A DNA stretch of 64,000 nt, from positions 9,934 to 73,933 of the forward strand of contig CAYVTW010000010.1 in the NCBI GenBank assembly GCA_964454895.1, given 5' to 3'. This document shows, one piece after another, positions 9,323-14,181 of the stretch. The position numbers and the translations under genes are program-made. The notes below the pieces were generated by a model, which was not told the DNA's origin, made no database searches, and saw only the letters and a list, made by a program, of their open reading frames with translations. Source of the DNA: an uncultured Ignavibacterium sp. (GTDB lineage Bacteria > Bacteroidota > Ignavibacteria > Ch128b). Each line of letters begins with the position of its first letter. The stretch's first letter is position 1.

Positions 9323-10300
9323 TTATTTATCGAGATAAAGTGGAAGTCTTGCGTCGATATTGAAGTCATTGACTAAAATTTTCTTTTCGAAGTTGTTGCT
9401 TAAATCAACCTGGACAATAGTTCCAGTTCCGTTTTCTCTTATGGCAGTATAATAAAAATATTTTTCGTCTTTACTAAAGGAAAATTGTGGATAAGCACCA
9501 TCTGTGAATCCAGCATCTTCTGTGATGATTTGTTTTGTTCTCGTTTTTTTGTTGTACAATACAATTCTTGCTGGAATAAAATCAGAACCTGTAACTGTAT
9601 TTTTTGAGAGCAAGGTCATGTAAGCAATGTATTTTCCTGTAGGTGACCATATGGGAGATACTGAATTTTCGTACGGTGAAGTAATGTAATTAATTGGTTG
9701 ATTTTCTGTCCAGTTCGTATTCACTATACCAATTCGAAAATTTGAATCAACTTTTCCGATATTTATTAAAAGTTCTGTCCCTTCTGGAGAATGAAGCGGA
9801 TGAAAAACATAATGTGCAAAAAGTTGGTTTGTTTGTTTTTCCCAATTGAATTTAAAGGTTGCTTCTCTTCTTTTATCGTAATAAAAAACACTTTTTTCAT
9901 CAAAAGAAAAAATTGGCGTGATTTTACTCCAATAATCGACTTCAAGAACAGTTAAAACTTTTCCTGCCGAATCGGCAATCGTAATTCCATTTTTTGAGTA
10001 TGCAGCAACATATTTACCAGAATTAGAAACTACAGGCATGTATCCTTCAAAAAAATAAATTTGCTTCTCTCGATATTTATCCACCTTGAAAATCGAATTA
10101 CCAATATTCAAAACAATAAAATTCTCGTTCAACCATCTTGGAAGATATGAATTTGAGAATGAGAGTTCAGATATTTGCTCAGTTTCAACGTCTAAGTAAA
10201 AAGCTTTAACACTCTCTGTTAATCGGTCTACACCTGTAAAAACAACTTGTGCATGTAGATTTATACTAAGCATTAATCCGAGGAAAAAAACCTTTCTCAT
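9323..10300 (-). CDS. Secreted hypothetical protein, beta-propeller-like (TolB/WD40-like repeats)
   Basis: Signal peptide. Repeated ...SP.GKY.A... / ...FS.D.K..YY... motifs typical of TolB-like propellers. Start overlaps purM stop by 4 nt (ATGA), suggesting translational coupling. Confidence 0.4.
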   Translation of the reverse strand: MRKVFFLGLMLSINLHAQVVFTGVDRLTESVKAFYLDVETEQISELSFSNSYLPRWLNENFIVLNIGNSIFKVDKYREKQIYFFEGYMPVVSNSGKYVAAYSKNGITIADSAGKVLTVLEVDYWSKITPIFSFDEKSVFYYDKRREATFKFNWEKQTNQLFAHYVFHPLHSPEGTELLINIGKVDSNFRIGIVNTNWTENQPINYITSPYENSVSPIWSPTGKYIAYMTLLSKNTVTGSDFIPARIVLYNKKTRTKQIITEDAGFTDGAYPQFSFSKDEKYFYYTAIRENGTGTIVQVDLSNNFEKKILVNDFNIDARLPLYLDK

Positions 10301-11307
10301 TTGATCTCACCAATAACAAAAGTTTCTTCGCCAGAATTTTTTAATTCATACCTAACTTTATCAACAACCGATTTCTCAACAATTAGTATCAAACCAATAC
10401 CTAGATTAAAAACCTCCCTCATTTCTTCATCCACGATCTTACCTGTAGCTTGAATTAACTTGAAAATCTCTGGCACATTCCATGAGTTCCAATCAATCTT
10501 GATATTCAAATTTTCGGGAACGATTCTTTTGGTATTTCCAATAATTCCTCCACCTGTAATATGCGATATTCCTTTGATATTGAATTTTTCAAGTAAAGGA
10601 TAAACCGAGCGAAAATATGACTTATGAATTTTTAATAATTCCTCACCTAATGTTAAACCTAATTCTGCAATCATTTCGTCGAGTCTAAATTTCTTTAGCA
10701 GTACTTTTCGTGCAAGTGAGTAACCGTTTGTATGAAGTCCATTCGATTTTAATCCGATTAAGATATCGCCAGCTTTAATACCTTGTCCATCGATTATTTT
10801 TTCTTTCTCGACAATTCCAACGATTGTTCCAGAAATATCATAATCATTTTCAGAATACAAATCGGGCATCTCAGCAGTTTCTCCTCCAATTAAAGCACAA
10901 TGGTTTTCTCTGCAGGCAATAGAAAGACCACGCATTATGGCTTCTGCAGTATCAAGATTTAATTTTCCAAATGCTAGATAATCGAGAAAGAAAAGTGGTT
11001 TAGCACCTGAACAAAGAATATCATTTACGCAATGATTGACTAAATCCTGCCCAATTGTATCGTGCTTATTCATCGTTATTGCAACTTTGAGTTTTGTCCC
11101 AACACCATCAACACTTGAAACTAAAACAGGATTTTTCATTTCCGAAAAATTATTATCGAAAAATGCACCGAAATGTCCGATATCTGTCAAAACTCGTTTT
11201 GCATTTGGATTATCATCTGAATATGTTGAGCGGAGAAGAAGCTTAATTCTTTTAACAAATTCATCCCCTTTTGAGATGCTTACACCGGCTTTTTCGTATT
11301 CTTTCAT
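10297..11307 (-). CDS. purM: Phosphoribosylformylglycinamidine cyclo-ligase (AIR synthetase)
   Basis: Near-colinear match to PurM: ...VSSVDGVGTKLKVA...HDTIGQDLVNHCVNDILCSGAKPLFFLDYLAFGKL...LIGGETAEMPDLY...HITGGG... Confidence 0.9.
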   Translation of the reverse strand: MKEYEKAGVSISKGDEFVKRIKLLLRSTYSDDNPNAKRVLTDIGHFGAFFDNNFSEMKNPVLVSSVDGVGTKLKVAITMNKHDTIGQDLVNHCVNDILCSGAKPLFFLDYLAFGKLNLDTAEAIMRGLSIACRENHCALIGGETAEMPDLYSENDYDISGTIVGIVEKEKIIDGQGIKAGDILIGLKSNGLHTNGYSLARKVLLKKFRLDEMIAELGLTLGEELLKIHKSYFRSVYPLLEKFNIKGISHITGGGIIGNTKRIVPENLNIKIDWNSWNVPEIFKLIQATGKIVDEEMREVFNLGIGLILIVEKSVVDKVRYELKNSGEETFVIGEIK

Positions 11308-11361
11308 AGTTGATACAAATCTATTAAGAAAGGAAGTCGCTTCAAAAAATCATATCTTGAT

Positions 11362-12000
11362 CTAATTTATTAACGGCAAACCTTCATTCATTTCATTAAT
11401 TGAAAAATGATAATTAACCACCACACCTTTATGTTCACCCATTTCATCTACATCACCTTTACCTGATTTTCTCCTAAACCTACGTGAATTATCAATATCG
11501 TTTGAATGAATTCTTTTTAAAACATTCAATTCTTGGTGATAAAATTTTATGCTTTGAAAATTAATTCCTGTTAAGCATGCTCTATTTATTAAACACCACA
11601 CTATATAAATAGGTTTTTGAAGTTTTTCCTTAATCGAATAATATCTTTCTAGATCGCTCAAATTCAAAGTCAAGGTTTCGGAAGGATATAAGTTGGATGC
11701 TGGAATTAATTCGCGAATCTTCATAAATGTTCTTGCTTGAACTTTAATTTCAATTAATGCAACCTCTTCTTTTGAATTTTTCTTTTTTACTATTAAGTCT
11801 GGATAACTATGATCAATTTCATTTCTAATTGCATCGAAAGAAATATTTATCCTTCTAATTAGTTCAATCACAAGATCCTGAATTAGATTTGAGAACAGAA
11901 TGTCATCATCAAATTCATAAACAGCTTTTGAGACAGAGTCACATCGATGCTCACACATCGAACAATCAAAAATATTTTTAGAAAGCTCAACAAAAGGCAT
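11362..12000 (-). CDS. Putative type II restriction endonuclease (PD-(D/E)xK fold) cognate to the adjacent methyltransferase
   Basis: 212 aa, immediately downstream and same strand as the MTase. Contains ...EIDHSYPDLIVKKKNSKEEVALIEIKVQ..., a PD...(E)xK nuclease signature. N-terminal CxxCxxxC cluster. No other recognisable family. Confidence 0.45.
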   Translation of the reverse strand: MPFVELSKNIFDCSMCEHRCDSVSKAVYEFDDDILFSNLIQDLVIELIRRINISFDAIRNEIDHSYPDLIVKKKNSKEEVALIEIKVQARTFMKIRELIPASNLYPSETLTLNLSDLERYYSIKEKLQKPIYIVWCLINRACLTGINFQSIKFYHQELNVLKRIHSNDIDNSRRFRRKSGKGDVDEMGEHKGVVVNYHFSINEMNEGLPLIN

Positions 12001-12064
12001 ATTGGTCTTGTTTATTTATTGAATTAATTAAATAACATTTAATTCTTAGTTAGTTGTCTTGCTA

Positions 12065-13192
12065 TTAAGTTTTATCTTTCTTTAAATCGTCGATGAAAAA
12101 ACAATCCACATTAAAATTTTCTTTGTAATATTTTAGTCTAACCTCGTCGATGCTAATCAGCTTATTTTTTCTTTTCACAAACCAAAATTCCCAACCATTA
12201 TTTCTTTCTCTATTCAAAATGAATGCACTTATCTTGTGAATAGAACCTACAACATCCCTATACTGAATTGAACCATCAGACAAAACTTTTGATTTATGCT
12301 TCAAATCTTTTGAGTAAATTAGTTCGCCCGGTTTTATCAAGCCTTTTTCAACAAGATTTCCGAATGGAATTCTTGCCAGTCTTTTCTCAACTTTATATTC
12401 AATTAAATCTTTATCGAGTGGTTTTATCTTTTTTAATCTTTCAAGAGAAATTTTAACATATGTTTTATCTTTCTCAAAAGCTAAGTATTTTCTTCCAAGT
12501 TTTTTTGCTACAGCTGCAGTAGTTCCGCTTCCAGAAAATGGATCAAAAACAATGTCGCCAGGATTTGTTGTTGAAATAATAATCCGATACAGCAATTCTT
12601 CAGGTTTTTGTGTCGAATGGGCTTTTTTCCCATTTAACTTTACCCTCTCTCCTCCCTGACAAATTGGAATTATCCAATCACTTCTCATCTGTAAGTCATC
12701 GTTAAAAATTTTAAGTGAATGATAATGAAATGTGTATTTTGAATTGCTAGATTTAGTTGCCCAAATCAATGTCTCGTGTGCATTATTAAAACGTGTTCCT
12801 TTAAAATTTGGCATCGGATTGGTTTTGATCCATATAATATCATTTAAAATCCAGAAACCAAGATTTTGCATAATCGTCCCAAGTCTAAAAATGTTATGAT
12901 ATGTCCCAATTACCCAAATGCTTCCCGTATCTTTTAAAATCCTTTTGCATTCACTTAGCCAATTTCTGCTGAATTCGTCATACTCTTCGAACGAACTAAA
13001 TTTATCCCATTCATCATTAACTGCATCCACTTTGGTTTGATTTGGTCTATATAATTCATTATTCAATTGAAGATTGTAAGGGGGATCGGCAAAAATTAAA
13101 TCCACTGAATTATCTGAAATTTCTTTCATTAGCTCGATACAATCACCAGCGTAAATTTTATTTAATTCAAATGGACCTAATTTTTCTGGCAT
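12065..13192 (-). CDS. Beta-class N6-adenine DNA methyltransferase, CcrM/M.HinfI family (GANTC-type specificity inferred)
   Basis: Motif IV DPPYN (…SVDLIFADPPYNLQL…) precedes motif I FDPFSGSGTT, the beta-class order. Long blocks match my recollection of CcrM (…KVDAVNDEWDKF…WVIGTYHNIFRLG…GFWILNDIIWIKTNPMPNFKGTRFNNAHETLIWA…KAHSTQKPEELLYRII…), including the CcrM-type C-terminal DNA-binding extension. Confidence 0.85.
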   Translation of the reverse strand: MPEKLGPFELNKIYAGDCIELMKEISDNSVDLIFADPPYNLQLNNELYRPNQTKVDAVNDEWDKFSSFEEYDEFSRNWLSECKRILKDTGSIWVIGTYHNIFRLGTIMQNLGFWILNDIIWIKTNPMPNFKGTRFNNAHETLIWATKSSNSKYTFHYHSLKIFNDDLQMRSDWIIPICQGGERVKLNGKKAHSTQKPEELLYRIIISTTNPGDIVFDPFSGSGTTAAVAKKLGRKYLAFEKDKTYVKISLERLKKIKPLDKDLIEYKVEKRLARIPFGNLVEKGLIKPGELIYSKDLKHKSKVLSDGSIQYRDVVGSIHKISAFILNRERNNGWEFWFVKRKNKLISIDEVRLKYYKENFNVDCFFIDDLKKDKT

Positions 13193-13722
13193 TTAGTGTA
13201 ATCTCTCCTAAAAATACTTTAAAAATCTATTCATCGATAAACTATTTATAGTGATTTCACTTATCACATAAGATAAATTAAAAAAAGGATTTGTCAGTTA
13301 AAATCTAAGGGAAATAATTATTTTTTTAAAAAAACCTCATTAAGATTTTTTTGTTACACTCATTCTCATTTAATAAAACATTTTGGTAATTAATCAAAAA
13401 TTAAATTATATCGATCAAATTTTCTTCAAATTAATACATACTACTATGAAGTTTGATATGATGTATGAATTAATATGATAATCGGTTCAAGCTGTCTCAT
13501 TTAGGGTAAATGAATTAAGAGTGAAGAAGTAGTTTCATTTCAAACCAATTTCAGTTTTATAGTTTTCAGTTCCGGACTTGGAAGAGGGATAATCTAATAA
13601 TAAGATGGACCAGTTATTAGAATAGCAGAATACTGGATTAGCATAACTGAAAAGTTAAGAAAAGCAAAAAAATCTCAATTTTTATCTTTCTTTTCAAAAT
13701 TTTATATTGCGTAACCTGAGAT

Positions 13723-14181
13723 ATGAGAAAATTCAACATTAGAAGGATACTTGTACCTACAGATTTCAGTACGATTTCTGCCCAAGCTTTTCCGTATGCC
13801 GAAGATATCGCAAGGCAATTTGGTGCAGAAATTCATTTATTACATGTGCTTGAGAAGAATCCACCAATTTTTCTCATTCGAACTTTTGACATATCAAATG
13901 AGACTGCTTTACAAAAAATTGAGGACGATGCAAAAAATTTATTGAATGAATTTAAAAATAAATTCTCGAGCGATATTAATGTGAAAACAGTGCTATTAAG
14001 AGGAAATGATTTTGAAGAGATTGTTGAATATGCTCAAAGCAATCAAATAGATTTAATTGTAATAGCAACTCACGGCAGAACTGGATTATTACATACACTA
14101 ATTGGCAGTGTTGCCGAAAAAGTGATAAGATATTCAAAGATACCTGTGCTTGTGATAACAGCAACTAAAGAAGAAAATTGA
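13723..14181 (+). CDS. Universal stress protein (UspA family)
   Basis: ...ILVPTDFS..S..A...A...A...GAEIHLLHV... and C-terminal ...LIVIATHGRTGL...GSVAEKVIRYSKIPVLVI... Confidence 0.8.
   Translation: MRKFNIRRILVPTDFSTISAQAFPYAEDIARQFGAEIHLLHVLEKNPPIFLIRTFDISNETALQKIEDDAKNLLNEFKNKFSSDINVKTVLLRGNDFEEIVEYAQSNQIDLIVIATHGRTGLLHTLIGSVAEKVIRYSKIPVLVITATKEEN

Follow-up and report, generated by a model that had tools for sequence, protein, structure and literature searches.

A probable GANTC restriction-modification system with a proposed endonuclease of an undescribed PD-(D/E)xK family in an Ignavibacteria genome

Introduction

What is the function of a small gene without an assignable family that directly follows the gene of a CcrM-like DNA methyltransferase? 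This question is raised by a stretch of 64,000 nucleotides from an uncultured Ignavibacterium sp. (contig CAYVTW010000010.1; the whole stretch is called the window below). It contains a methyltransferase gene, here called M, and behind it a gene for a protein of 212 amino acids (aa), here called X. An earlier note on the sequence had proposed that the pair is a Type II restriction-modification (RM) system. The analysis described here indicated that M and X probably form a Type II RM system directed at GANTC, and that X is its proposed restriction endonuclease and belongs to a new family. Such a system is ordinary in kind and its methyltransferase is conventional, while the nuclease family is new to the libraries searched.

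Results

The methyltransferase

The open reading frame (ORF) list of the window places the M gene (375 aa, ATG start) at 12065-13192 and the X gene (212 aa, ATG start) at 11362-12000, 64 bp downstream of M, both on the minus strand. The coordinates, lengths, gap, quoted motifs and the M-then-X order on one strand that had been reported earlier were all correct, the strand being the minus strand. The features of M are as follows.

12065..13192, minus strand: M gene, beta-class N6-adenine DNA methyltransferase of the CcrM/M.HinfI type (matches in Pfam, PADLOC and the Protein Data Bank, PDB)
13076..13087, minus strand: DPPY codons (aa 36-39), catalytic motif IV (sequence; same as CcrM in the alignment)
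12524..12538, minus strand: F-S-G-S-G codons (aa 219-223), motif I, binding S-adenosylmethionine (sequence and CcrM alignment)
12119..12382, minus strand: C-terminal RAMA or 80-residue segment (aa 271-358; PF18755 and CcrM alignment)

M matched the Pfam families N6_N4_Mtase (PF01555, 6.4e-68) and RAMA (PF18755, 6.8e-14, aa 271-358) as well as the PADLOC model for Type II methyltransferases (MTase_II, 6e-171). The match to the PDB entry of Caulobacter CcrM (6pbd, 6e-133) ran end to end and covered residues 12-353, and the identity of M to this enzyme is about 57%. In the alignment the DPPY motif, the NLQL/RP/W loop residues and the C-terminal NGW..W and R positions were conserved, and the RAMA segment, which aligned to residues 272-359 of CcrM, retained the equivalents of W332 and R350. 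The predicted CcrM/M.HinfI-type enzyme with a C-terminal extension and the motif order DPPY, then FxGxG was therefore recovered with Pfam, with the CcrM structure and in the alignment. Because DPPY (motif IV) precedes FSGSG (motif I), M belongs to the beta class. The NCBIfam equivalog model for CcrM (NF050803) gave 554.7 bits, which is under its cutoff of 830 bits, and therefore M is regarded as a CcrM/HinfI-type enzyme and not as a strict CcrM orthologue. The family is very large, with at least 8000 relatives.

It has been shown experimentally that the C-terminal segment of CcrM and M.HinfI drives the recognition of GANTC by strand separation (PMC7672430). The similarity of M to CcrM, including this segment, together with homologues that are partnered by HpyAIV-family enzymes and with the avoidance of GANTC (see below), suggests that M targets the adenine of GANTC on both strands. 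The literature on GANTC methylation in Bacteroidota and Ignavibacteria yielded no organism-matched methylome.

A PD-(D/E)xK nuclease of an undescribed family

The features of X are as follows.

11362..12000, minus strand: X gene, PD-(D/E)xK nuclease of an undescribed family, proposed Type II restriction endonuclease (212 aa)
11941..11964, minus strand: C13-x2-C16-x3-C20 codons (cysteines invariant in 35 sequences)
11743..11802, minus strand: catalytic core P67-D68 ... E84-I-K86 (invariant in the 35-member alignment)
11392..11484, minus strand: C-terminal block R173..E203 (RRFRRxSGxGD...HKGVVVNYHFS; nearly invariant)

No match to X was found in Pfam (only noise, E 0.18), NCBIfam, PADLOC including REase_II, or among PDB sequences, and the plasmid, phage and IMG/VR collections contained no relative. 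The family consists of 318 clusters of proteins of about 200-226 aa, each of which is unnamed or called "hypothetical". A profile search of 1.8 billion representatives gave only 97 matches to X and no bridge to any named family; one distant member matches VRR_NUC.

Thirty-five members from several phyla were aligned, with a mean column identity of 53%. More than 40 columns are invariant, PD...ExK among them. The invariant residues include C13, C16, C20 and C142, P67-D68, E84-x-K86-x-Q88-x-R90 and an S-E-T / N-x-S-D-x-x-R-Y block; the YPD of X is at aa 66-68, and a near-invariant E41 is located on a helix upstream of the core. The invariance of PD...ExK and of the cysteines in all 35 members shows that the motif is no chance match.

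The AlphaFold2 model of X was confident (predicted local distance difference test 87.4, predicted template-modelling (TM) score 0.85) and had a PD-(D/E)xK fold. The best Foldseek matches were Holliday-junction resolvases and D212, with query-normalised TM scores of at most 0.39. Only the nuclease core has a solved counterpart, and therefore X is described as a PD-(D/E)xK nuclease with N- and C-terminal elements of its own. In the model it is a nuclease of this fold with intact active-site residues, namely E41, D68, E84 and K86. The cysteine cluster C13/C16/C20 together with the invariant C142 is a probable zinc-binding site, and the C-terminal block is a candidate DNA-recognition element, judging from sequence conservation. 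Taken together, fold, invariant residues and empty library searches agree with the earlier description of the 212-aa ORF as a divergent restriction endonuclease candidate of no assignable family with PD...ExK and CxxCxxxC motifs.

A homology of X to the HpyAIV-type endonucleases was also considered and was rejected, as hhalign gave a probability of 0.9% and an E value of 0.06, which is not significant. The alignment places the core residues of X on the D...E-x-K of the HpyAIV-family enzymes, below statistical significance, and the models of the HinfI and HpyAIV families (NF045831, NF045832, PF09520) had no sequence match to X.

A known GANTC endonuclease in the same position

Four homologues that are 70-74% identical to M were looked up. 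In Ignavibacterium album, in a Kapabacteria metagenome-assembled genome (MAG) and in Raineya the M homologue overlaps at its 3' end with a gene for a HpyAIV-family endonuclease or directly adjoins it. A HpyAIV-type enzyme is thus found in the position of X behind a closely related M, which argues that X plays the role of the endonuclease; this is the strongest single argument. The expectation that such methyltransferases outside the Alphaproteobacteria are the M subunits of GANTC RM systems agrees with the HpyAIV-family gene downstream in the closest relatives, and so does the HinfI-like order of M and then R with a short gap, because the gene directly follows the close M homologues. Behind the fourth homologue (L102:4001-6727, 70% identical) there are a 142-aa ORF of unknown kind and a DDE transposase gene but no nuclease gene; an insertion sequence may have displaced the endonuclease gene.

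The genomic company of X

One genome per species was scanned for X (185,579 species representatives), and it was found in about 108 species from Ignavibacteria, many Bacteroidota, Clostridia, Treponema and Desulfovibrionaceae, which is a patchy distribution over five phyla. After removal of redundancy 83 loci, including the window, were classified, and neighbours were judged within the fetched flanks. An N6-methyladenine (m6A) methyltransferase gene adjoins X in 59 of the 83 loci, and these enzymes come from two unrelated classes. A CcrM-like methyltransferase is the neighbour in 25 loci, and in 26 loci a Dam-family methyltransferase (D12, TIGR00571) of about 375-410 aa is encoded directly upstream of X on the same strand. 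In eight further loci X is accompanied by a CcrM-like methyltransferase and a 270-aa HpyAIV-type protein, and in the remaining 24 (about 29%) the flanks contain no methyltransferase gene. The usual arrangement is M and then X on one strand.

The 270-aa protein is a Type II endonuclease of the HpyAIV family (229-293 bits against NF045832, cutoff 160), and the specificity of HpyAIV for GANTC has been verified by experiment (PMC2615612). In a genome of 3.96 Mb (L096) a distant X (30% identity) is part of a cluster with a D12 methyltransferase and an endonuclease labelled PF09520, and through this cluster the D12 partners are connected to GANTC systems of the same kind. The label "PF09520:HinfI" of three proteins (L006:1565-2383, L046:6632-7441 and L096:5104-5970) was not reproduced by hmmscan against Pfam-A; with NCBIfam the first two belong to the HpyAIV family and the L096 protein has no match. 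The two sources seem to be different Pfam versions.

In the tree of X, sequences with partners of the two methyltransferase classes are interleaved. Two sister sequences from Segetibacter have a D12 methyltransferase gene upstream in one case (L070:4828-6609) and a CcrM-like gene downstream in the other (L084:6001-7815), which is a recent exchange of the methyltransferase class around the same nuclease. Retention of X while the methyltransferase is swapped is expected if all partners protect the same site, and the swapping fits a constant specificity of X.

As a separate observation, a divergent X (35% identity, with GD replacing PD) adjoins a D12 methyltransferase gene in L097:4683-6544 and L098:4850-6711. 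The surroundings, with many small ORFs, an M23 peptidase and an HNH gene, look prophage-like.

Avoidance of GANTC

The window contains 148 GANTC sites, compared with 236 that are expected from a maximal-order Markov model, and the observed/expected ratios (O/E) of control N-spaced palindromes were near 1. Among the 505 reverse-complement-merged pentamers GAATC/GATTC had the strongest depletion in the window (z -6.6, followed by -3.0). When the X-bearing loci were pooled, GAATC/GATTC had rank 1 (z -16.5) and GACTC/GAGTC rank 3. The median O/E of GANTC was 0.61 over 70 X loci, 59 of which were below 0.8, and the depletion was present in every partner class of X (0.58-0.64). It was strongest at solitary X loci of Flavobacterium, with a pooled value of 0.31 and individual values of 0.08-0.22; individual loci have 2-4 sites in place of the expected 19-25 (L020: 2 versus 24). 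As controls, 50 kb of E. coli K-12 gave 0.88, an Ignavibacteria relative (L092) 1.05, and L094 0.85. The comparison of the GANTC count with expectation, which had been recommended as a genome-wide check of the RM proposal, was run on the window and on the X loci, and it yielded the most avoided pentamer in both.

Further palindromes are rare in the window, i.e., ACGT (17 versus 56 expected, 0.30), GTAC (0.57), CATG (0.59), CTAG (0.65) and GATC (0.71), which suggests pressure from other restriction systems. GATC is nearly absent from L008 (3 versus 35 expected), L103 (0 versus 17), L101 (4 versus 27) and L097 (2 versus 18); this scarcity is independent of the GANTC signal.

Gain or loss of M and X as a unit

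Loci of relatives were found by anchoring on purM in metagenome contigs. The order usp-M-X-purM, in which usp is a universal-stress-protein gene, is common to the window, to L087/L007 (one organism) and to L008. In L089, L091 and L092 usp is followed directly by purM, with spacers of 739, 174 and 154 bp, respectively, and no remnant of M or X was found at these empty sites. M and X have thus been gained or lost as a unit. Within the cassette-bearing lineage the ratio of nonsynonymous to synonymous substitution rates (dN/dS) was 0.14-0.19 for X, 0.06-0.08 for M and 0.08-0.13 for purM. The dS values were above 1, and therefore the cassette is old and maintained.

Three-gene modules and solitary X genes

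X co-occurs with a HpyAIV/PF09520-type endonuclease and one methyltransferase in three-gene modules, which were found in eight loci and in L096:

L006:740-3522; L046:5977-8617; L052:795-3427; L073:5989-8539; L082:6007-8571: three-gene modules
L085:5992-8590; L009:957-3616; L076:5157-7742; L096:3875-6729: three-gene modules, continued

The modules come in at least four gene orders, and one (L006) has a helix-turn-helix (HTH) controller gene upstream of X. Both nucleases have kept their catalytic residues. For the closest pair of modules the dN/dS was 0.054 for X, 0.118 for the HpyAIV-type enzyme and 0.034 for M, so that both nucleases are under purifying selection.

The 24 solitary X genes are also under purifying selection. 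Two groups have a conserved neighbourhood:

L012:5120-12367; also L016, L019-L022, L025, L026 and L029: solitary Flavobacterium X
L030:4235-6603; L031:4275-6648; L034:4320-6636: X behind PolX

In nine Flavobacterium species an alpha/beta hydrolase gene, X and an HhH-GPD glycosylase gene are followed by a 5S-23S-16S rRNA operon in conserved synteny, and the dN/dS of X is 0.05-0.18. Because the rRNA operon adjoins, most of these contigs end about 1 kb past X. In three Sphingobacteriales/Bacteroidota MAGs X begins 5-17 bp behind the gene of a PolX DNA-repair polymerase (HHH_8 + PHP) on the same strand, with no methyltransferase gene nearby. A DNA-repair neighbourhood of solitary X was considered as a signal of function and was judged not significant, as the repair genes represent two independent contexts of about 15.

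Weighing the alternatives

The evidence favours a restriction endonuclease for GANTC, and several of the observations weigh against it. The set of negative controls for GANTC avoidance is small. Furthermore, L089 and L091 are depleted in GANTC (0.52 and 0.59) in spite of having no cassette between usp and purM, which could be due to a recent loss or to a system at another place in the genome. In the window the depletion is confined to GAWTC (98 observed versus 188 expected), and GASTC is not depleted (50 observed versus 48 expected, small counts). The three-gene modules are unexpected for a restriction endonuclease of the same specificity, and as X is more conserved there than the HpyAIV-type enzyme, it is not simply redundant. 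Two isospecific endonucleases that share one methyltransferase, e.g., as an insurance against phage inhibitors, are a possible explanation, which is an assumption. The share of solitary X genes is high for a Type II endonuclease. Finally, the best fold matches are junction resolvases and D212 and not restriction enzymes; this ranking is mainly a reflection of the minimal nuclease core.

One alternative draws on most of these points. X could be an accessory nuclease that acts alongside GANTC methylation, e.g., a MutH-like nickase, a Vsr-like repair enzyme or a Hjc/RecU-like enzyme, and M would then effectively be solitary. Modules in at least four arrangements combine X with one methyltransferase and a complete HpyAIV-type endonuclease, both nucleases being under purifying selection. 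This is in line with an accessory role, as are the 24 of 83 loci without an adjoining methyltransferase gene, the operonic association of solitary X with an HhH-GPD glycosylase gene in Flavobacterium or with PolX in three Sphingobacteriales, and the resolvases as top fold matches. X showed no structural or sequence similarity to MutH or Vsr, and the repair-gene neighbours again amount to no more than the two contexts mentioned above. An accessory role would not be expected to make GANTC the most avoided pentamer, most strongly so where X is alone (Flavobacterium, O/E 0.08-0.22), as the target of the non-restricting Dam/MutH pair is barely avoided in E. coli (GATC O/E 0.89). In addition, X is located exactly where otherwise near-identical M-R cassettes have their R gene, and its patchy distribution over five phyla with absence from most genomes is typical of mobile defence genes. 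As to the solitary copies, separated RM systems are documented, and solitary restriction endonucleases are often predicted to have a distant cognate methyltransferase (Ershova et al., 2012, PMC3488263). Altogether, an accessory nuclease is unlikely.

It is tempting to speculate that X is a dedicated partner of GANTC methylation, which was recruited independently by two methyltransferase classes and is kept beside true GANTC endonucleases. It may read the methylation state of GANTC and cut or nick hemimethylated or freshly replicated sites, or it may process the breaks made by the resident endonuclease. The three-gene modules, the solitary copies beside base-excision or PolX genes and the Hjc-like core would then be explained; nevertheless, this possibility is rated as rather doubtful.

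There is only a small chance that X is a restriction endonuclease with a narrower or different site, e.g., GAWTC as for TfiI and PfeI, which would still be covered by a GANTC methyltransferase. It would account for the depletion of GAWTC alone in the 64-kb window. However, the counts of GASTC in the window are small, and in the pooled X loci GAWTC (0.56) and GASTC (0.63) are both depleted, with GACTC/GAGTC as the third most avoided pentamer.

That M is a solitary CcrM-like regulator and the 212-aa ORF an unrelated or decaying neighbour, as the identity of about 57% to Caulobacter CcrM and the much larger size of the M family (at least 8000 versus 318) might suggest, is very improbable and largely refuted by the co-occurrence data, because 59 of the 83 loci, which come from five phyla, have an m6A methyltransferase gene next to X, gain or loss affects M and X jointly, the X gene is intact and shows purifying selection, and M reaches 555 bits versus the CcrM equivalog cutoff of 830.

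In the favoured Type II RM system M would methylate the adenine of GANTC on both strands and shield the sites of the host, and incoming DNA would be cut by X, presumably as a homodimer, at unmethylated GANTC or at part of these sites, e.g., GAWTC. X would combine the catalytic set E41/D68/E84/K86, a Cys4-type cluster and a conserved arginine-rich hairpin at the C-terminus. Cleavage by X, its specificity and oligomeric state as well as the actual methylated site are what we infer from the comparisons described above.

Discussion

Comparison with known systems

The HpyAIV and HinfI systems share with the present one the architecture of M (N6_N4_Mtase + RAMA) and the predicted target, and also the position of R behind M on one strand, the two genes overlapping or being separated by a short junction. 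X itself has no detectable sequence similarity to R.HinfI (NF045831) or R.HpyAIV (NF045832); it is shorter (212 aa versus about 265-290 aa), and the cysteine cluster is its own. The solitary cell-cycle regulator CcrM (6pbd) resembles M from end to end, and the two share DPPY, the loop residues and the C-terminal segment. In contrast to CcrM, M is below the equivalog cutoff, occurs outside the Alphaproteobacteria and is paired with a nuclease gene in a dispensable cassette.

The minimal PD-(D/E)xK nucleases archaeal Hjc, SSV D212 and RecU cover about 110-135 of the 212 residues of X and have no sequence similarity to it, and its N-terminal cysteine cluster and conserved C-terminal hairpin have no counterpart in them. 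Unlike housekeeping resolvases, X is patchily distributed, linked to methyltransferases and without a Pfam match, so that only the core fold is alike. About 29% of the X genes match the class of "solitary RE" described for Type II endonucleases (PMC3488263), whereas the copy in the window does not.

If X cuts GANTC, one more endonuclease family would be known for this site, with no detectable relationship to the HinfI and HpyAIV enzymes. Methylome surveys are likely to list the methyltransferases adjacent to X as "orphan" in Ignavibacteria, Bacteroidota, Clostridia, Treponema and Desulfovibrionaceae, and inclusion of the X family in annotation resources would correct this. X is also of evolutionary interest, as one nuclease has been swapped between methyltransferases of the alpha and beta classes, and one slot is taken in turn by two nucleases without homology. 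It is a genuine, if small, puzzle that isospecific nucleases coexist in the three-gene modules, and another that solitary endonucleases are tolerated where GANTC is avoided to an extreme degree.

Borders of the cassette and the upstream region

The proposed cassette would span positions 11308-13675 of the window on the minus strand and comprise the two genes, located between usp and purM in this Ignavibacteria genome. On the left it is bordered by usp (13723-14181, plus strand), 530 bp upstream of M, and on the right by purM (10297-11307), which is on the minus strand like M and X and begins 54 bp after X. The additional features are as follows.

12001..12064, minus strand: spacer between M and X (64 bp; terminator-like sites absent)
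11308..11361, minus strand: junction between the X stop and the purM start, right edge of the cassette (54 bp; purM directly after usp in loci without M-X)
13193..13675, minus strand: cassette-specific portion of the intergenic region in front of M (no alignment to its counterpart in relatives, whether these carry the cassette or lack it)
13676..13722, no strand: conserved usp leader, left edge of the variable segment, outside the cassette (kept in 5/5 Ignavibacteria loci with or without M-X)

M and X are probably co-transcribed, and 13193..13675 presumably holds the candidate promoter of the pair. The spacer between the two genes is not kept in relatives, and neither is a palindrome inside it (AATTAAAT-GTT-ATTTAATT).

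An AT-rich leader of about 530 bp had been pointed out in front of the pair. It exists (13193-13722), and nothing special about it could be upheld. It is the divergent intergenic region between usp and M, its GC content of about 0.28 is close to the average of about 0.32 in the window, and only the 45-50 bp or so adjoining usp are conserved among relatives, while the rest is unconserved even in the closest cassette-bearing relative. Promoter-like sites were not in excess (13 versus 13.5 expected from shuffling), and there was no Rfam match, no flanking or terminal repeat and no small HTH (controller-protein) ORF. With these results and the unconserved palindrome in the spacer a special regulatory leader was ruled out, and no significance is given to the region because it has no detectable feature.

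An additional observation concerns the empty site of L089 (L089:9262-10000), which with 739 bp is longer than the approximately 160 bp of the others. It contains two 34-bp copies of AAATCCCTATGTCAGTCTGAG[T/C]GACAGTC..., 209 bp apart, possibly a small repeat or a miniature inverted-repeat transposable element (MITE).

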